The translations under genes were made by a program, and so were the position numbers. Positions 1 to 9,708 of a stretch of DNA of 44,228 nt are shown here, one piece after another (position 1 is the stretch's first letter; the number at the start of each line of letters is the position of its first letter). Origin of the DNA: Pseudomonadota bacterium (GTDB lineage: Bacteria > Desulfobacterota > Syntrophia > Syntrophales > UBA5619). The stretch is from NCBI GenBank assembly GCA_018819165.1, contig JAHJQP010000020.1, positions 1 to 44,228 on the forward strand, in the 5' to 3' direction. Below the pieces are notes generated by a model. The model was not told where the DNA came from, did no database searches, and saw nothing but the letters and a program-made list of their open reading frames with translations.

Positions 1-140
1 CAGCGGCTGACGTACACGCGAGCTTGCTCGCGGGGACGGCTGCCCGCTGCAGCCGCTTGATGGACTGGCGCGAAGCGCCAGGACAAAAGCGGATGGCAAT
101 CAGCAGCGCCGATGGCTCGGCGCGAAGCGTCCGAGCCATC
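1..140. repeat. Cluster of GC-rich stem-loops, truncated by the window edge
   Basis: Read directly from the sequence. AGCGGCTG (2-9) pairs with CAGCCGCT (50-57), with an inner CGCGAGC/GCTCGCG stem at 17-32. CCGCTT (53-58) pairs with AAGCGG (87-92) and encloses CTGGCGC-GAA-GCGCCAG (65-81). GATGGCTCGGCGC-GAA-GCG-T-CCGAGCCATC spans 111-140 with T130 bulged. The core GCGAAGC occurs twice (70-76, 122-128) and CGGATGGCAAT occurs twice (90-100, 153-163). Confidence 0.5.
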
Positions 141-143
141 GCC

Positions 144-199
144 CCGCATAACCGGATGGCAATGGAGCGTAGCGGAATTGCCAGTCCGAGTTAATGCGG
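144..199 (-). other. attC-like recombination-site hairpin (candidate attC-2); the plus strand would be the bottom strand
   Basis: A 20-bp interrupted stem: 144-152 pairs with 190-199, 153-156 with 185-188, and 157-163 with 177-183. The loop is 13 nt (164-176). AAC (150-152) pairs with GTT (190-192). The three unpaired bases (G184, A189, A194) all lie on the same arm. The site sits 25 nt downstream of the stop of the 224-895 ORF. Confidence 0.45.
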
Positions 200-223
200 T
201 TGTTGTGTGCCATTTTGGTACTA

Positions 224-895
224 CTACTGCTTCTCTGCGATTAGTTTTACCGTCTTTTTGGCAAAAGACTCGAAAATATGGGCTATGATAGGGATTTTCT
301 TTTGGGAATCATTTTTTGTGCCTTGCGTGCCAAGCCCCATGTCGATTCCCATATTTTTCTCGACGTCAAGTGCCATAAACCCAAAATAGTGTGAGAATCC
401 TACTTCGGTACTTCCAAAAGAAACATTAATAAAGGCAGAAAGACGGTTTACGAAATCAAGTTTTTGTGAATTTCTTTTTAGATCTGTGGTTGCGTTGCTA
501 TGAAGTTCCAAGTTATCAGCAACCCACATGGCGGATACACCACACAAAGGGGCCTTAGTCTCCTTGGTTCGCAGTTTTGTATATTCGTAATAATCATCAA
601 ATAACTCGGCATCTATTTGCCACTGCTTTGATAGAGCTCTTTTAACCTCATTCCGCACCTGGGGGTCAGAGAGCACGCCTTCAGCATGAACAGCGACACC
701 TGTCATAGCAATTGTCATAAGACAATCCCAAACTTCCACAAGATTCGAATCAATAATGGCTCCATAGTCGGGAAAACAGTTGACGATTGGCATGAGAGAA
801 GCCTTAGCAAGGGTATTTGTTTCCCATACAATATAATCAAATTCTCCTTCTTTATTCTTCTGCGATGATCTTCTGTTAAATGGCCAAAATTTCAT
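224..895 (-). CDS. Hypothetical protein (223 aa from ATG 895; the ORF extends to a TTG at 925)
   Basis: Long ORF in the AT-rich island. AGGAG lies 9 nt upstream of ATG 895 (MKFWPFNRR...). There is a double TAG stop (224-226, 221-223). I recognise no family motif. Confidence 0.6.
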   Translation of the reverse strand: MKFWPFNRRSSQKNKEGEFDYIVWETNTLAKASLMPIVNCFPDYGAIIDSNLVEVWDCLMTIAMTGVAVHAEGVLSDPQVRNEVKRALSKQWQIDAELFDDYYEYTKLRTKETKAPLCGVSAMWVADNLELHSNATTDLKRNSQKLDFVNRLSAFINVSFGSTEVGFSHYFGFMALDVEKNMGIDMGLGTQGTKNDSQKKIPIIAHIFESFAKKTVKLIAEKQ

Positions 896-979
896 TACTT
901 CTTTCTCCTGTTCCAGATTTATCAAAACACAATCACCTGCCGTCCAGTCATAAAAGAGAGCGGAAATGTATTTACCTCC

Positions 980-1714
980 CTATGTGACTTCAAATCTGTG
1001 AATGGGAACAGACATTTTGACCAAGGTTGTCACTCGAACGGTTTTGCCATTCAGCTTTACTTTTGCAATTCGCTTTGAATGATCGACATCGAGAATCTGA
1101 CCCAACTGGCTTGAATACAAGCAATCCTCACCAGGAATGACTTGATTCCATCTTGTAGGGCGCCAAAATGGTTTGAGGGGACGCAGTTTCGCTTTATCGC
1201 GTTCCCAAAATTCGTGATGTTTATCGCCAAGGCGACCATTCTTTTGCACATTTACTGAATCGATTATCCAGAAAGGACCAGTGTTCCAACCATAAACAGA
1301 ACGAACTCCCTTTACTGACCAAACCTGCCCCGGCATTCCTTTGATCTCAAAAACATCACCTCCCTTTAGCGGACAAGCAGGCGTGATGTTTTTTTCCAAA
1401 TAGTCATTTATTTTAGTCCATAGAGAAGCCGCTTTTTTCTCTGCCTCAGAATGAGCATAAAGAAGCTGATAAAGTTCAAGGTGGCGCTCATTCCTTAATA
1501 CTTTATCACTTTGTTGGATAGAAAAATGATTCCATGCAGCAATCGCATGCCTATCTTCCTTTTCTGAAAAATACTTATCGCATTTCTTGCAGCCAACAAT
1601 AGTGTTTTCATGCACGCTATGGTCTATTTCTGGAATCCACCGTATCACAAGGGATTCACGGGAGCCGCATAGAGGGCATGTTAAAACGTCAAATTCTTTG
1701 GCAGATTGTTCCAT
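980..1714 (-). CDS. Lar-like zinc-ribbon (restriction-alleviation family-like) N-terminal domain fused to an unknown beta-rich C-terminal domain of about 170 aa
   Basis: The N-terminus reads LTCPLCGS...VGCKKCD...HAIAAWNH. This matches the CPxCG...CxxC...AIxAWN pattern of Lar-family proteins. The start is uncertain: ATG 1714 or TTG 1729, and neither has a clear RBS. Confidence 0.6.
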   Translation of the reverse strand: MEQSAKEFDVLTCPLCGSRESLVIRWIPEIDHSVHENTIVGCKKCDKYFSEKEDRHAIAAWNHFSIQQSDKVLRNERHLELYQLLYAHSEAEKKAASLWTKINDYLEKNITPACPLKGGDVFEIKGMPGQVWSVKGVRSVYGWNTGPFWIIDSVNVQKNGRLGDKHHEFWERDKAKLRPLKPFWRPTRWNQVIPGEDCLYSSQLGQILDVDHSKRIAKVKLNGKTVRVTTLVKMSVPIHRFEVT

Positions 1715-1723
1715 ACCTTCAGC

Positions 1724-1786
1724 ACACAACGATTGAGGTCAGCGGCGGGCAGTTTTTCGCCCGTCCGCTGTAGTGACTGGTTAGGC
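1724..1786 (-). other. attC-like recombination site (candidate attC-1, 63 bp)
   Basis: Plus strand: ACACAAC (1724-1730), a 9-nt spacer, then an 11-bp stem (1740-1750 pairs with 1759-1770) with extrahelical T1764 and an 8-nt loop, another 9-nt spacer, then GTTAGGC (1780-1786). Read on the minus strand this is GCCTAAC...GTTGTGT, the order R''...R'. Confidence 0.5.
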
Positions 1787-1902
1787 GGTCATCTGTTCCC
1801 TTTATTTTTTTTCATCCTTCGTTGTGCCGGCGCCGGGCATGGGGTTTATTGTAACATTGTTCATTTATTCAATTAGAGGGCAGAAATCATCTACACAAAT
1901 AT

Positions 1903-2733
1903 TTACTTAATTATAGCATTTCTATTAATTATCTTGTAACCGTCACAATCGCGGACATCAACAAATGCTTCTGCCTTCACGATGCAAGACACGACGCCGC
2001 TTTCAATCACAACCCAAACATTCCCGTAGTTATATTTTAGATCGCTTCCATGAGATACTTTTGATCGGGGCTCGCCGGCGAATTTAATTACCTCCTGAGG
2101 CGTCATGCCCCGTTCAAGATTTTGTATGGCGGTTTTTGCTTTTGATTTTATGTCAAATTTCACCTTTTCTAATTCATCCATCTTTCCAAAAGCTTCCACT
2201 CGTTCTTTCCGAAGCGTAACTACTTCATCTATATTCTTTGTAGTAAGTTGTTGTTGCAATTTTTTCAGATTATCTTCCAGCCCTTGAAGCTGTCGTTGCT
2301 GATCAATGACCTTTTTCTCTAGCTCCCTATCAGACTTAATTTGCTTTACTCTCTCCCGAAAGGAACCGATATCAACATCAGCCTTAACCGTCATGAAGAT
2401 GATTTGATTTTCACCGACAAATTTAATTTCTTCGGAGGCAATCTCAACTTTAACGATCGCTCCGGCGAAAGTCTTTATCTCATCACGGGTCAAGTTGAAA
2501 TTCTTTATCTCTGTGGAACTTTCAATATATGTTCCTGCTTTTTCGATAGCCAATCGCTTAGCTTCAAGGAAGCAAATCCTTTTTGCATCATTTTTGGTAT
2601 CGTTATCACCCATCGTGTATTTGTAGCTGGCGAAAACAGATTCTGAGGCGGAGTAAGCTGATGAAGAAAAGGATAAGAAAATTATGATAAACAATAGTGA
2701 AATGAAGGGAGTTTTATTGTCCTCTGTTTTCAT
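1903..2733 (-). CDS. Secreted or periplasmic coiled-coil protein (N-terminal LPP20-like region, C-terminal BamE/SmpA-like region), function unknown
   Basis: Signal peptide MKTEDNKTPFISLLFIIIFLSFSSSAYSA. The central segment is rich in heptad-like charged repeats (KQIKSDRELEKKVIDQQRQLQGLEDNLKKLQQQL). The C-terminus contains GMTPQEVIKFAGEP. AAGGAG lies upstream of ATG 2733. Confidence 0.7.
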   Translation of the reverse strand: MKTEDNKTPFISLLFIIIFLSFSSSAYSASESVFASYKYTMGDNDTKNDAKRICFLEAKRLAIEKAGTYIESSTEIKNFNLTRDEIKTFAGAIVKVEIASEEIKFVGENQIIFMTVKADVDIGSFRERVKQIKSDRELEKKVIDQQRQLQGLEDNLKKLQQQLTTKNIDEVVTLRKERVEAFGKMDELEKVKFDIKSKAKTAIQNLERGMTPQEVIKFAGEPRSKVSHGSDLKYNYGNVWVVIESGVVSCIVKAEAFVDVRDCDGYKIINRNAIIK

Positions 2734-2802
2734 GAGCTATCTCCTTAAAAATTTCCGGAAGAACCTTCAAAATGATACTATTAGGATTTCTGATTAGCGC
2801 CG

Positions 2803-3315
2803 TTAGGCGGTCCAGCTATTAGCCTCAATGTTAACAATGAAACCTGATTTAAGTAGTTTGTTGCAAAATGGTGTAACATGTTCTGAACCACAGATGAACA
2901 ACAAAGGCCATTTGTTCAGGGTTTTAATCCTTGCTAGCCAAACAGCTTCACGCTTTCGATACTCTTTCTCGATCCGTTCCTGGATTTCCTCTCTCGACCA
3001 GTTATTTCGATATTGTCCATAATACTCTATTGTGCCTTCATTCATTATGCCAAGCTCCGATTGTTCATCTATAGTAGGGTCCGAATATTGGTGTGCTATA
3101 TTGAAGCTTTGAGCTACTTGAAATGGAATGGACTCATCCTGACTATTTTCATTTAAAACCTCTTTATTCATCTCTTCTGCAATTGCATGAATGCTATGCT
3201 TTTTTACTAAAACGGATAGATAATTTCGAAACTTTTCAATCTCATCATTTGATCGGCATTTATCAGACCACTGAAACTCATGATTTGTACCGACTATGAC
3301 GATAATTTTATCCAT
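2803..3315 (-). CDS. Small Tiki/TraB/GumN (EreA-like) superfamily-like protein (tentative)
   Basis: A 170-aa ORF with IVGTNHE near the N-terminus, AEE in the middle and ICGSEHV near the C-terminus. This resembles the GTxH...E...GxxH signature of that superfamily. The TAA stop (2803-2805) lies inside GCCTAAC. Confidence 0.55.
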   Translation of the reverse strand: MDKIIVIVGTNHEFQWSDKCRSNDEIEKFRNYLSVLVKKHSIHAIAEEMNKEVLNENSQDESIPFQVAQSFNIAHQYSDPTIDEQSELGIMNEGTIEYYGQYRNNWSREEIQERIEKEYRKREAVWLARIKTLNKWPLLFICGSEHVTPFCNKLLKSGFIVNIEANSWTA

Positions 3316-3342
3316 TGCATCGAGCCTAACAATGTTTATATT

Positions 3343-3480
3343 GATCCGTATAAAAACCCAAAAGCCGCAATATTTGCCGTATAAGACGCCGACGGAAATT
3401 ATAATTTATCAGTCATAAACATCATTGTATCTAATGGTTACGCATGAGCGTTGTTTTTGTCATGGTGTTTTATACGGATC
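3343..3480. repeat. 13-bp perfect inverted repeat (GATCCGTATAAAA at 3343-3355 / TTTTATACGGATC at 3468-3480) enclosing reiterated CCGTATAA motifs
   Basis: CCGTATAA occurs at 3346-3353 and 3377-3384 (direct) and at 3470-3477 (inverted). A variant GGTATAAAA lies at 3481-3489. The region is immediately upstream (minus-strand sense) of the first cassette boundary GTTAGGC. Confidence 0.5.
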
Positions 3481-3510
3481 GGTATAAAATCCTCTGCGAC
3501 CTCCCAATCA

Positions 3511-3547
3511 GTAATAAAAACCCCCGTTCTTTTCTTGGGAACGGGGT
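3511..3547 (-). terminator. Rho-independent terminator with no gene directly upstream (orphan)
   Basis: The minus strand reads CCCCGTTC-9 nt loop-GAACGGGG followed by GTTTTTATTAC. The stem is 3522-3529/3539-3546. Confidence 0.6.
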
Positions 3548-3704
3548 CATGATAGCTAGTCCATATTTCCCTCCAGCACGGTTATACGTGATGGAACATA
3601 TTCAACTGCTTTTCATATTTTCAGTTTCATTATCACGATTATCTTTTGAAATCTACAATAAAAAGAATAATGTCGACCTGTTTCTTTTAGGAAGTTGTCT
3701 TTAG

Positions 3705-3744
3705 CAAAAACACCACCCGATGCGGACCCGTATGCCGGATGGTG
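3705..3744 (-). terminator. Rho-independent terminator downstream of the RhuM-family gene
   Basis: On the minus strand, CACCATCCG...CGGGTGGTG (3744-3736 pairs with 3719-3711, 8 of 9 bp) is followed by TTTTTGC. Confidence 0.5.
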
Positions 3745-3792
3745 AGGGGGCTGGGGGAGCGCCGGCATACCGATGATGCGTCTGCTTCACCA

Positions 3793-4386
3793 TCATACGG
3801 AGTTCTTGTTCACCCGGAGGGTTGCCAGCGCAGCGGCGACTTCTTTCCCCTTTGCCTCGATGATGTCCATCAGCTCTTCCGGCGTTCGGGTGTCCACATT
3901 CGGCTTCTTGTTCGGATTGACGGCCTTCAGGTCATAGACGGCGTCTTCGATTTCCTTGGCCTTGCCGGCCAGATCCCTCGATTCGCGCGTCAGGTGTTCG
4001 CGCAGAACCCCGGTAGCCCAGATGCGGAACTGCGTACCGCGCTTGGAGTTTACCCGGTAGCCGACGGAGATAATCATGTCGAGGTTGTAAAATTTCACCC
4101 TGCGCCGGATACTGCGGCTGCCTTCCCATTGAACTACCGAGAAATCCTCGGTAGTTACCGCTTTTCCCAATTCGCTTTCCTTGTAGATGTTTCTAATATG
4201 GAGGCCGATGGTATCCGAGTCTTTATCAAACAATTCGGCCATCTGTTTCTGGGAAAGCCACAACGTCTCCCGCACCAGCCGGACATCCAGCTTTATGGTG
4301 CCGTCCGGATCACTATAAAGGACAATGGCATCCCCACCATAATCACTTGGCGGTTCCCGAAGGATGTTGGGTTGCTTTCTCATCAT
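3793..4386 (-). CDS. rhuM: RhuM-family virulence/Fic-associated protein
   Basis: Contains ...IVLYSDPDGTIKLDVRLVRETLWLSQKQMAELF...LHIRNIY...KFYNLDMIISVGYRVNSKRGTQFRIWAT, which is typical of RhuM. GGAG lies upstream of ATG 4386. The start overlaps the stop of the hsdS fragment (ATGA). Confidence 0.85.
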   Translation of the reverse strand: MMRKQPNILREPPSDYGGDAIVLYSDPDGTIKLDVRLVRETLWLSQKQMAELFDKDSDTIGLHIRNIYKESELGKAVTTEDFSVVQWEGSRSIRRRVKFYNLDMIISVGYRVNSKRGTQFRIWATGVLREHLTRESRDLAGKAKEIEDAVYDLKAVNPNKKPNVDTRTPEELMDIIEAKGKEVAAALATLRVNKNSV

Positions 4387-4610
4387 AATTCTCCATTGAA
4401 CGCCCGGCGCAGCAGGGTTGCGGGCAAGGCGTTGATCGTGGCCAATTCTTCTTCCAACGCCGCGCGGGCTTTCTCCACCGCCGGATGGAGGGCCTTGAAC
4501 CACTCACCGATCCGCTCGACACCTGGCTCGATCCGGAGGAACTCGCCGGTCAGGCCGCCCGCCAACAGGCAGCCGATGGCCGCCAGGGGCTCTTCCCCGG
4601 ACAGGGCCAT
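4383..4610 (-). pseudogene. hsdS: Type I restriction-modification specificity subunit (HsdS) C-terminal fragment
   Basis: A 75-codon ORF ending ...ALEEELATINALPATLLRRAFNGEL, the conserved C-terminal helix of HsdS. No target-recognition domains are present and there is no room for them before the neighbouring gene end at 4659. Confidence 0.65.
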
Positions 4611-4658
4611 CTGCAGACCGATCAGGATTACCGCCAGGCCGAGGCCCTGTATGCGGAA

Positions 4659-6278
4659 TCAACTCTCCGCTGATTTCCTCTCCAGGATCGTAATGGCAAA
4701 ATCCGGGCAGATATAGAGGCACCGCAGGCAGCCGACGCATTTATCCGTATTCACGGCAACGGCCGGTTTGTAGCCGCCGGGGTTGAAATCCTCGGATTGT
4801 TTGAAGATGTCGAGGCTGCACACCTCCCGGCAGTAGCCGCAGTCCTTGCAGATGAGATCGTTGACCGCCACTTCGAATTCGCGGAGATCGCAGGAGAGGC
4901 AGCGGAATGCTTCCGCCGCGGCTGCTTTTCTCTCATAGGCCAGCTCTATGGGATCGAAGGTGACGCGCCGCCTCTTCAGGGCAATTTTTCGGACGTCCGG
5001 TCGCGTTGTCCCTCGCGGCGCGGTCTCCGGCAGCGCCGGATTTTCATCTTCCGACAGAGCCTCCGGGATGACCCCCGTGCCGCCTAAAAACCGGTCGATG
5101 GATGCGCAAGCCAGTCTCCCCTGGGCGATGGCCTCGATGATGGTCGAGGGACCGGTCACGGCATCTCCCCCGGCAAAGACTCCCTTCTTCAGAGTGGCCA
5201 GATTGCCCTTATCCACATGCACCGTCCCGTTTCTTAGCCCTTCCAGATTTACGGAAGCGGCATCCGCGGACTGACCGATCGCCATGATCAGGGTGTCAAA
5301 GCTCAAAGCATACTCGCTGCCGGCGACGGGAACAGGCGCCGGTCTGCCGGTTGCATCGGCATCCCCCAGTTTCATACGGATGCAGGTCGCCTGATCTTCT
5401 CCGATCTTCACGGGCGCCGTCAGATACTCGATTCGTACGCCTTCCTCAACGGCCTCGACGATCTCCTCGCCGCTGGCCGGCATTTCCGAGCGGGTCCTGC
5501 GATAGACCTGGACCACCTCCGCACCAAGACGGATCGATGCCCGGGCCGCATCGACGGCCGTATTGCCGCCTCCCACCACGATCACCTTCCTGCCGATGGC
5601 CGGTGTTTTTCCTTCATTGACCTGTCTTAGAAAAGAGATGCCGTCGATGACTTTCGGCGAATCCTCGCCCGGGATTCCCATCCTGGCCGGCTTCCAGGCG
5701 CCCGTCGCCGCCAGAACCGCATCAAAGCCCTTTTCCCGCAAGGCTTCCGCCGAGGAGACCGGCGTGCCCTCAACCAGATCGACCCCGCCCTCCCGGATCA
5801 ACGCGATCTCCCGGTCCACGATCTCCTCGGGCAGGCGATACTCGGGAATGCCGTAACGCAGCATGCCGCCGGGCAGGGAGAGCGCTTCATAAACGGTGAC
5901 ACTGTGCCCCAGGACGTTCAGATAGTGGGCGGCCGTCAAGCCGCAGGGACCGGAACCGATGACGGCAACCTTCTTTCCCGTAGGCGGCCGTTTGAAGATC
6001 ACCGCCGGTTTCCGCCCGCCCTTCTCCGCGGCAACCCTTTTGAGCATCCGAATGGCGACGGCTTCATCAAACTGGATCCTCGCGCATTTTGCCTCGCAGG
6101 GATGGACGCAAGCGCAGCCGCAGACAAAGGGAAACGGTATCCGCTCCCGGATGACGGCCAGTGCCTTTTCAAAGCGTCCGTCCCTGATATGCCTGATATA
6201 CCGGGGGACATCAATGCCCGCCGGACAAGCCTCCTGGCATGGGGCTGTCGACTTCTTCCTGCACTGAATGGCTCCCAC
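4659..6278 (-). CDS. GltD-like NAD(P)H-dependent FAD oxidoreductase fused to a C-terminal 2x[4Fe-4S] ferredoxin domain
   Basis: N-terminal Cys cluster CRKKSTAPCQEACP. Dinucleotide folds VAVIGSGPCGLTAA and VIVVGGGNTAVDAA. C-terminal CKDCGYCREVC and CVGCLRCLYICP. GTG start with a GGAAAGGAAAG RBS. Confidence 0.85.
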   Translation of the reverse strand: MGAIQCRKKSTAPCQEACPAGIDVPRYIRHIRDGRFEKALAVIRERIPFPFVCGCACVHPCEAKCARIQFDEAVAIRMLKRVAAEKGGRKPAVIFKRPPTGKKVAVIGSGPCGLTAAHYLNVLGHSVTVYEALSLPGGMLRYGIPEYRLPEEIVDREIALIREGGVDLVEGTPVSSAEALREKGFDAVLAATGAWKPARMGIPGEDSPKVIDGISFLRQVNEGKTPAIGRKVIVVGGGNTAVDAARASIRLGAEVVQVYRRTRSEMPASGEEIVEAVEEGVRIEYLTAPVKIGEDQATCIRMKLGDADATGRPAPVPVAGSEYALSFDTLIMAIGQSADAASVNLEGLRNGTVHVDKGNLATLKKGVFAGGDAVTGPSTIIEAIAQGRLACASIDRFLGGTGVIPEALSEDENPALPETAPRGTTRPDVRKIALKRRRVTFDPIELAYERKAAAAEAFRCLSCDLREFEVAVNDLICKDCGYCREVCSLDIFKQSEDFNPGGYKPAVAVNTDKCVGCLRCLYICPDFAITILERKSAES

Positions 6279-7821: not shown

Positions 7822-8649
7822 TTATCTCACCAACCCGAGCATCTCCCTTGCCTCGGCAGGGGTGGCCGGCTCCCGACCGCACTCGCGGGCAATGCGGGCC
7901 AGACGGGCCACCAATTGAGCGTTGCTTTGGGCCAATTCGCCCCGCTTGTAGTATAGATTATCCTCCAGACCGGTGCGGGCGTGCCCGCCCATGGCGATGG
8001 CCAACATGTTCATAGGCAACTGGCGCCACCCCACCGCGCACACCGACCACAGCGACCCTGCGGGTATGCTATCTATTAAGTAGAGCAGGGAACGTGCCGT
8101 GGCGGGGGCCCCTCCCTTAACCCCCAGGACGAACTGCCACCACGGGGGCGGTTTGATCAGACCATTCTGTATAAGTGTCATGGCATTGCCAATCATTCCG
8201 CTATCAAACACTTCAATTTCCGGTTTGACGTTCGCTGCCAGCATGCGCCCGGCCAGTTCCTCCAGAAAGTCCGGCGGATTCAGAAAGACGCGTTCATTGA
8301 AGTTCATGGAGCCTGCATCCAGCGACCCCAATTCCGGCCCGGCAGCCAAGCTGTTGAAGCGCTCGCCCTCATCCACACGGCCGGCCCCGCCGCTTGTAGT
8401 GAAATTGATGAGAATATCGCATCCCTGGGCGCGGATCAGTTGCTTGACCCGCTGGAACCGCGACAGATCGCAGGTCATCTTTCCCGCCTCGTCCCGCACA
8501 TGGACGTGGACGACGGCTGCCCCTTCGCGCCAACTCTCCACCGCCGCCTGGGCAATCTCCTCGGGCGTGACGGGCAGTCCGGGGTTTTGCAGCTTAGACG
8601 GCCGACTGCCGGTCGTGGCTACCGATAGGATAATTTTGTCATTGTTCAT
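7822..8649 (-). CDS. BKACE family enzyme (3-keto-5-aminohexanoate cleavage-like, DUF849)
   Basis: Resembles Kce-type proteins along its full length, for example TPEEIAQAA...VVHVHVRD and ...SNAQLVARLARIARECGREPATPAEAREMLGL. Confidence 0.85.
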   Translation of the reverse strand: MNNDKIILSVATTGSRPSKLQNPGLPVTPEEIAQAAVESWREGAAVVHVHVRDEAGKMTCDLSRFQRVKQLIRAQGCDILINFTTSGGAGRVDEGERFNSLAAGPELGSLDAGSMNFNERVFLNPPDFLEELAGRMLAANVKPEIEVFDSGMIGNAMTLIQNGLIKPPPWWQFVLGVKGGAPATARSLLYLIDSIPAGSLWSVCAVGWRQLPMNMLAIAMGGHARTGLEDNLYYKRGELAQSNAQLVARLARIARECGREPATPAEAREMLGLVR

Positions 8650-8919
8650 GTGGTATTCCTTAATCTTGATAAGAACTTGTTTTGGGTGGTGTGAGTATAT
8701 GGAAATGGTTTTTGTGCGTCAATATAAATAAACCGCCGCCATTTCCCCATGCCTGACATGAGAGGAACGGAACCACAGATTGCGCAGATGATTGAGACAC
8801 ACCGATCTTGTGTTGAAGGGAAGCGATAAATCTGATAGACGTCCATATATGAACCAGAACGTTTCTTCAAGAGAACACTGCCGTTTGCGGGGAGGCTGCC
8901 CCGAAGGGGAAGCGACGGG

Positions 8920-9708
8920 ATGAGAGCGATCTTTATCTCCGACGCTCACCTGAAAGGCGCTGAAGATGGCGTCTGTAAAAAGCTCCTGCATTTTTTCGAC
9001 CATCTTCGGGATGGGGTCGTAACGGCCGGCAGGGGGGGAGGCGGAGCGACCGGGAACGGCGGACCGGTGAATCAACTCGTCATTGCGGGAGATTTATTCG
9101 ATTTCTGGTTTGCGAGAGGTGATGTGATCTATCCCGGTTTTCGACCGGTGGTGGAAAGGCTCGCACTTTTGCGGCGTTCGGGAATCAGGATCAGCTTGTG
9201 TGAAGGCAACCACGATTTCTTCCTCACAGACTATTTTTCGCAGAAACTGGGTATGGAGGTCTATCCGGAGTGGGCCGAGATCGATCTTGACGGCCTGCGG
9301 ATCCTCGTTTCGCACGGTGATACCGTGGACAGGGAAAATCGCCGCTACCTGGCGCTGCGGCGATTCCTGCATAGCCCCTTTTCCTTCCGGCTGCAGCGTG
9401 TGCTTCCGCTGGCGTTCCTCTGGCGGATCGCCCGGATCAGTTCGGAGATGAGCAAGGGGATATCCGGGGGCGCGCAGGATCGTCTAACAGAGGTCATGTA
9501 CCGTTTTTCCCTGGACAAATTTGAGGAAGGCTATGATGCCGTAATCCTGGGCCACTGTCACAAGCCGCTCATTCGTGAGGTGCAGCGCGGCGGCAGGCTC
9601 AGGACCTTCGCCACCCTGGGCGACTTGATTACCCATGATTCCTATCTGCTGTACGAAAACGGCCGCTTTACACTGAATCGCTTTTCGCCCGAGGGGCAGC
9701 ATGGATGA
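8920..9708 (+). CDS. lpxH: UDP-2,3-diacylglucosamine hydrolase (LpxH-type metallophosphoesterase)
   Basis: Motifs FISDAHL, AGDLFDFW and GNHDF. A Gly-rich insertion follows the first motif. Confidence 0.75.
   Translation: MRAIFISDAHLKGAEDGVCKKLLHFFDHLRDGVVTAGRGGGGATGNGGPVNQLVIAGDLFDFWFARGDVIYPGFRPVVERLALLRRSGIRISLCEGNHDFFLTDYFSQKLGMEVYPEWAEIDLDGLRILVSHGDTVDRENRRYLALRRFLHSPFSFRLQRVLPLAFLWRIARISSEMSKGISGGAQDRLTEVMYRFSLDKFEEGYDAVILGHCHKPLIREVQRGGRLRTFATLGDLITHDSYLLYENGRFTLNRFSPEGQHG

Follow-up and report, generated by a model that had tools for sequence, protein, structure and literature searches.

A probable integron attC site at the joint of two two-gene cassettes in a groundwater Syntrophales genome

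Environmental attC sites are known by the thousand. According to the rules set out by Nivina et al. (2016; PMC5027507), the extrahelical bases of an attC site lie at bottom-strand positions 16 and 23/24, the latter being a conserved T. [quoted passage not shown] Cassette arrays that stand apart from an integrase are termed CALINs, the definition requiring two or more attC sites within 4 kb and no intI nearby (Cury et al. 2016; PMC4889954). In a further arrangement, the 'inverted integrase group' (a grouping cited in PMC10500605), intI is co-oriented with the cassettes.

Here we describe a site of this kind in a 44,228-nt stretch of DNA (the window). The window makes up all of contig C63, in a genome bin of 1.70 Mb and 82% completeness. 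The contig carries the core genes secA, fusA, proS and relA/spoT, with Syntrophales and Syntrophus as nearest named relatives (81–83% identity for ProS), and its DNA is present in groundwater metagenomes. Positions 1–3700 form a low-GC block (37–46% G+C, compared to 55–63% in the rest) with four co-oriented minus-strand ORFs that have almost no family matches. The cumulative GC skew of the window is negative on the left and positive on the right, with a minimum at ~8000–9500; should replication start at this minimum, the leading-strand template would be the one that carries the attC bottom strands.

A sequence-only reading had proposed that positions 1724–1786, within the low-GC block, form a 63-bp site with attC geometry, and all of the elements it named are present where it placed them. 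We conclude, with a probability of about 0.9, that this site is a bona fide integron attC ('59-base element') belonging to a 1.6-kb, two-gene, minus-strand cassette and forming its joint with the next cassette. Its parts are as follows.

1724 to 1786, minus strand: complete attC site (attC1) of 63 nt, with the minus strand as top strand and the plus strand as bottom (recombinogenic) strand
1780 to 1786, minus strand: R'' box, GCCTAAC (GTTAGGC on the bottom strand), 7 of 7 positions against RYYYAAC
1775 to 1779, minus strand: unpaired central spacer on the R'' side, CAGTC, 5 nt
T1771, plus strand: first extrahelical base, position 16; a bottom-strand T, where G is usual
T1764, plus strand: second extrahelical base, at position 23; this bottom-strand T is conserved
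1740 to 1770: hairpin core, with a 6-bp stem (1740–1745/1765–1770) between the two extrahelical bases
1746 to 1750/1759 to 1763: apical part of the core, a 5-bp stem; its 8-nt loop (1751–1758) is the variable terminal structure
1731 to 1736, minus strand: unpaired central spacer on the R' side, TCAATC, 6 nt
1724 to 1730, minus strand: R' box, GTTGTGT (ACACAAC on the bottom strand), 6 of 7 positions against GTTRRRY

On the plus strand, ACACAAC (1724–1730) and GTTAGGC (1780–1786) enclose a hairpin in which 11 nt (1740–1750) pair with 12 nt (1759–1770, including the extra T1764) around a loop of 8 nt. Read on the minus strand, with the extrahelical bases in parentheses, the site parses as GCCTAAC, CAGTC, ACT, (A), CAGCGG, (A), CGGGC, the 8-nt loop, GCCCG, CCGCTG, ACC, TCAATC and GTTGTGT. 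When the 63-mer was folded as single-stranded DNA, a check suggested for both strands at the outset, the hairpin formed at –14 kcal/mol on either one (z about –3.3; 1 of 200 shuffles was equally good). Two details of the original description need revision. The spacers are mostly unpaired, as had been claimed, but not over 9 nt: only 5 and 6 nt are truly unpaired, and the rest consists of a 3-nt outer L segment plus T1771. Similarly, T1764 is bulged but is not the single extrahelical base, since T1771 is another.

T1771 lies exactly 6 bp from T1764. In an alignment of 48 sites (see below), the top-strand column at position 23 is A in 45, while that at position 16 is variable (C in 27, G in 10, T in 8 and A in 3). 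Pairing in the outer L segment (1772–1774 versus 1737–1739) is limited to one Watson–Crick pair and one G–T pair, with one mismatch, and the adjoining 6 bp are perfect. The two pairs missing from the window site are unpaired in 5 and 8 of the 48 aligned sites. The R'-side spacer, TCAATC, resembles TCAAGC of the aadA1 attC and TCAAAC of the aac(6')-Ib4 attC. With respect to extrahelical positions, 6-bp stem, 5- and 6-nt spacers and overall length, the window site agrees with the rules of PMC5027507. From this parse and this agreement it follows that the plus strand is the bottom strand, with T1771 and T1764 extrahelical. Cleavage is predicted to occur between A1729 and C1730.

For comparison, we extracted attC sites, twelve in all, of class 1 integrons annotated on clinical plasmids (aadA1, aadA2, cmlA8, blaOXA-246, arr-3, aac(6')-Ib4, aac(6')-IIa, aac(6')-IIc, aac(6')-Il, dfrA12, gcuF and qacL). 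On the cassette-sense strand, their layout runs from R'' (7 nt) through a 5-nt spacer, 3 bp, an extrahelical base and 6 bp to a second extrahelical base (a top-strand A), present in most. A variable middle follows, then a return arm of 6 bp plus 3 bp, a return-side spacer of 5–7 nt (mostly 6) and R' (7 nt). The minus strand of the window matches this layout position for position. A crude finder, which combined the pattern RYYYAAC...GTTRRRY with minimum free energy, gave many false matches in coding DNA and missed real sites. It was replaced by geometry scoring and a covariance model. The model, termed R1, was trained only on the attC sites of aadA1, aadA2, cmlA8, aac(6')-Ib4, aac(6')-IIc, gcuF and qacL (n = 7); it is a surrogate that differs from the curated model of IntegronFinder, and with seven training sites its E-values are rough.

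R1 matched positions 1724–1786 over their full length and on the minus strand only, with a score of 36.5 bits (E = 1.2e-7 for the 44-kb window, filters off), well above noise and in line with the original attC call. The second-best match in the window scored 10.6 bits, and the third is the neighboring site at 134–208 on the minus strand. Genome-wide (1.7 Mb), nine matches were found at E values up to 1. The window site is the best of these, and the other eight lie on contigs C225, C28 (three, all on one strand), C71, C156, C176 and C84. When 41 genomes were scanned (this one plus 40 relatives), 27 contained R1 matches at E values up to 0.001, with as many as 18 per genome, and the score of the window site is mid-range among the matches in related genomes. 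The related sites, both in this genome and in its relatives, fit the attC model and are arranged in arrays, each following a small co-oriented ORF. We aligned 48 R1 matches, comprising the window site and sites from the relatives' genomes and from metagenome loci. In this alignment, 90% of cells are paired and covariation is 0.53, compared to 0.16 for shuffles and ≤0.10 for slid controls, although these values are biased towards the structure of the model because the alignment was fitted to it. Rfam has no attC family, and a gathering scan of the window returned two tRNAs only. A pattern for the R''–L'' half, run against 185,579 species genomes, yielded one match, in a Leptolyngbya genome (L018, 26 bits). 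Membership of the site in the attC class, as regards sequence and structure, is directly observed.

The decisive evidence for the attC call comes from comparison of cassette boundaries. The units concerned are the following.

1730 to 3329, minus strand: cassette 1 (upstream), ~1.6 kb, with ORFs 3315–2803 (170 aa) and 2733–1903 (276 aa, lipoprotein-like) and attC1
140 to 1729, minus strand: cassette 2 (downstream), ~1.6 kb, with ORFs 1714–980 (244 aa) and 895–224 (223 aa) and attC2
134 to 208, minus strand: attC2, with R'' ACACAAC (complement of the cassette start GTTGTGT) and R' GATGGCT

The two-gene unit of cassette 1 occurs together with the same attC in metagenome contig L019, where the neighbors differ on both sides. 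Homology of cassette 1 with L019 and two further loci, L020 and L021, runs through attC1 and ends at GTT. Beyond that point the window reads GTGTGC, L019 and L021 read ATGCGG and L020 reads ATACGA, and different genes follow in each. On the 5' side, homology starts at GTT(A/C)GGC, ahead of the 170-aa gene. Copies of attC1 in the three loci are 97% identical, with two differences, none of them in the stems; the AAC and GTT boxes, whose conservation in homologous loci had been proposed as a check on the call, are retained in all. The 244-aa and 223-aa pair of cassette 2 recurs in nine loci (L045–L053). In L045 the attC ahead of it is a different one and homology with the window starts at GTTGTGTGCTGAA, while in L050 it stands behind unrelated DNA and homology starts at GTTGTGTG. 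These breakpoints (L019–L021, L045 and L050) locate the crossover between 1730 and 1729, so that cassette 1 ends with G1730 and cassette 2 begins with TTGTGT. Boundaries compared on both sides of this G/TT step bear out the proposal that the plus strand is the bottom strand and that the cassettes read on the minus strand; the strand is established, as is the precise point of the past crossover. In addition, R'' of attC1 (GCCTAAC, 1786–1780) is the exact complement, at 7 of 7 positions, of the cassette 1 start GTTAGGC (3330–3324), and the cassette 2 start GTTGTGTGC is complementary to GCACACAAC (210–202) in its own attC. Such complementarity between R'' and the first bases of its cassette (TTRRRY), through which an excised circle would regain its R box, is seen for both cassettes and accords with a past circular form of each.

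Population data are available for the same joint. Contigs from four groundwater runs, belonging to three studies, confirm the junction of cassettes 1 and 2, and the supporting pieces include 398–2011 (no differences) and 1314–2876 (one difference). Alternative junctions at 1728 and 1788, and also at 134, 136, 205 and 3325, exist in the same groundwater runs. Loose ends were seen at 1728 in runs X1, X2 and X4, and attC2 has loose ends at 134, 136 and 205 in metagenome contigs. Depth over 1618–1911 is raised 2- to 40-fold relative to the flanks in the four groundwater runs. The excision joint (3330 to 1729) was absent among the assembled contigs of these four runs, which is uninformative because contigs drop rare forms.

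The 276-aa protein of cassette 1 has relatives that share 80% identity with it. Its family also occurs in ordinary chromosomal settings without attC (L022, L023, L025 and L026), and hence it is only this lineage, rather than the family, that is cassette-restricted. A second GCCTAAC, at the stop of the 170-aa ORF (2809–2803), was considered as a relic attC and rejected: it gives no model match, and the L019 orthologue lacks the motif. In the 3' untranslated part of cassette 1 lies a 40-bp piece (1809–1848) containing the palindrome CCGGCGCCGG. This piece appears in many other metagenome contexts, is flanked by loose ends on either side in runs X1–X3, and resembles the L'–R' end of other attC sites in the same genome (e.g. 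C28:2530–2548). A fused cassette may have left this piece as a relic of its end.

In cassette 2, ORF 1714–980 has a Lar-like zinc-ribbon N-terminus and is the one exception to the lack of family matches among the ORFs of 1–3700. Its attC2 scores 10.1 bits with R1 in the window, and the L045 orthologue, with R' GTTGGCA, scores 19.9 bits. In L046–L049, cassette 2 lies behind hisH, with AA before TTGTGTGC instead of the usual G, and its attC is interrupted in R'' by an opposite-strand group II intron (Rfam D1–D4, L046:4847–5117). Insertion at attC is a known habit of the attC-targeting class C introns. Downstream of cassette 2, positions 1–133 (minus strand), which continue as C156:2114–2266, form a G+C-rich hairpin block without an ORF. 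This block starts with GATGGCT, and the same start directly adjoins the attI crossover in a same-genus genome (G014:C228; L008:1–90), which suggests an ORF-less cassette in which the first base after G is A, not T. Its depth in the source metagenome is ~8x that of the neighboring cassettes.

Cassette 1 is preceded by a further element.

3330 to 3480, minus strand: attI region, ending at crossover G3330

The 150 nt upstream of G3330 recur on two other contigs of this genome, C133 and C28, and the three copies diverge right after GTTA. A homologue in the same-genus genome mentioned above (G014:C228; L008) lies directly downstream of an intact intI, and others follow C-terminal fragments of intI in G007:C189, G009:C1 and this genome's own C28. 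Because the homologues follow intI, we read 3330–3480 as the attI of an integron type in which the integrase is co-oriented with the cassettes. No intI was found in the 44-kb window with TIGR02249, and in the genome bin the only trace is an 83-aa C-terminal fragment on C28. An ORF at 3739–4716 (plus strand), of IntI-like size and position, was considered and rejected, as it has no NCBIfam or Pfam match and the real gene there is rhuM-like and on the other strand. In the set of 41 genomes (this one plus 40 relatives), intI scores above the curated cut-off in 12, and fragments are present in many more; same-genus genomes carry intact intI.

Frames of ~65–100 aa that match the last 55–90 integrase residues were seen at C28:889–1140 and in G016:C10, G016:C78, G001:C108, G017:C90, G009:C1 and G007:C189, and in those checked they stand directly upstream of attI. 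Such frames could reflect repeated decay of intI or a mini-gene that has been kept. This genome has a second cassette array (C156:1084–3200), which carries LysE-family and short-chain dehydrogenase cassettes and starts immediately behind the 3' end of hsdR, a type I restriction gene. The window array likewise adjoins remnants of hsdS and rhuM (3793–4610).

Directly upstream of attI, in place of intI, is a conserved non-coding module of ~160 nt (3490–3660, minus strand), with promoter-like boxes, a GGAGGG-ATG and a strong terminator at its end. The GGAGGG-ATG does not begin a conserved ORF, as there is a stop at codon 3 in the window and ATA for ATG in a relative (G001). The unit of module plus attI is 75–80% identical in C133 of this genome and in three related genomes, and two module copies in this genome lack attI. 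Copies of the module are located as follows.

C133, about 500 to 680: module copy
C212, 326 to 514: module copy
C229, 2686 to 2829: module copy
L085: module copy
L086: module copy
L088: module copy

Copies of the attI region itself are found at as many as four sites in one genome. The module has no Rfam match; an E-value Rfam scan of 3300–3800 was empty, though it did not reach 3715–3775. Tentatively, and with the odds against it, the array may be a 'satellite' integron platform, in which a full attI headed by the non-coding module, not by intI, would serve as one of several integrase-less docks used in trans by a single integrase, the module providing expression of the cassettes or its control. 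Positions 3715–3775 (plus strand) resemble the domain V–VI end of attC-resident group II introns, with ~70% mean column identity in a three-way alignment with L042:5281–5350 (Rfam RF00029) and the L046 junction. They are probably a relic beside the rhuM terminator.

Could the hairpin at 1724–1786 be something other than a functional attC? It is G+C-rich, begins 117 nt past the stop codon of the 276-aa gene and folds equally well on both strands, as might a mere intrinsic terminator or mRNA-stabilizing hairpin of that gene with a chance likeness to attC. Yet there is no T-run on either strand and a terminator scan is silent here, and for these reasons we regard this explanation, which had been named at the outset as the one to exclude, as very improbable and effectively excluded. 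It would also leave unexplained the model score, the AAC and GTT boxes at canonical distances and the breakpoints at GTT. The raised metagenome depth over the site means that it is multi-copy in the community, a property expected of a palindromic repeat (REP- or MITE-like) that is spread through the genome and has no connection with integrons. However, although the genome contains the stem 11-mer 7 times, its partner never accompanies it elsewhere, and the related sites are found in arrays with small co-oriented ORFs upstream. The lack of other paired copies excludes such a repeat, which is the least probable explanation considered.

A somewhat better case can be made for a fossil, that is, an attC formerly used but now inert, its L box decayed and its integrase lost, which persists only as an intergenic hairpin. 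Consistent with this are the weak outer L-box pairing, the unusual first extrahelical base, the lack of intI in the window and its truncation on C28, and the state of the neighboring attC2, which has GAT for GTT and scores only 10 bits. On the other hand, the 97% identical copies in other metagenomes have every stem position intact, the R1 score is mid-range among matches in relatives, and alternative junctions at the edges of the site coexist in the same samples. Intact intI is also present in same-genus genomes, and some attC sites still recombine when their extrahelical bases are deleted (PMC5027507). Taken together, these data argue against a fossil, which we consider unlikely.

We return to attC1 as a genuine cassette joint, and infer that it may still be recombination-competent, with integrase presumably supplied from elsewhere. 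How it would work can be drawn from the established attC pathway. The plus (bottom) strand, once single-stranded, would fold into an imperfect hairpin in which ACACAAC (R') and GTTAGGC (R'') pair to form the R box, separated by the 5/6-nt unpaired spacer from a weak L box. T1771 and T1764, 6 bp apart, would be flipped out and signal strand choice to the integrase. The integron integrase would then cut between A1729 and C1730 and exchange strands with attI or another attC, and the resulting junction would be resolved by replication.

Several points follow from this analysis. Reading of raw sequence can call an attC correctly, strand included. The exact limits of both cassettes are now fixed (3329–1730 and 1729–140), which defines two mobile cassettes, each with two genes of unknown function, in circulation among anaerobes of groundwater and sediment. 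Within its well-known class, attC1 itself is unremarkable; there is some potential for new biology only in the platform, where an integrase-less attI is preceded by a conserved non-coding module.

Compared with known systems, the window site is closest in form to the attC sites of class 1 integrons (aadA1 and aadA2, 60 bp; aac(6')-Ib, 72 bp), which have the same order and spacing of boxes as the 63-bp window site. Top-strand letters common to both are T15, A18, G22, A23, the C before GTT, and AAC/GTT. Differences lie in position 16, where the window has a bottom-strand T instead of the usual G, and in the outer L-box triplet, which is mostly unpaired in the window. The cassettes and hosts differ too: a class 1 cassette carries one resistance gene and resides in a clinical proteobacterium, whereas the window cassette carries two genes of unknown function in an anaerobic groundwater Syntrophales bacterium.

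At the level of the array, the window fits the definition of a CALIN, with the qualification that attC2 is weak here (10 bits): like a CALIN (PMC4889954), it has two co-oriented attC sites, 1.5 kb apart, on a contig without intI, and the arrangement that marks a complete integron, with intI adjoining attI and array, is not found on this contig. In contrast to a CALIN, however, the window array still begins at a recognizable attI (3330–3480). Because attI heads the array, we favor an integron platform from which the integrase was lost or was always missing over a detached block of cassettes. The likeness to the inverted integrase group is one of gene arrangement. The inverted layout, with attI just 3' of intI and on the cassette strand, is seen in G014:C228, G007:C189 and C28 of this genome, while the classical divergent arrangement also occurs in the same taxonomic order (G035:C23).
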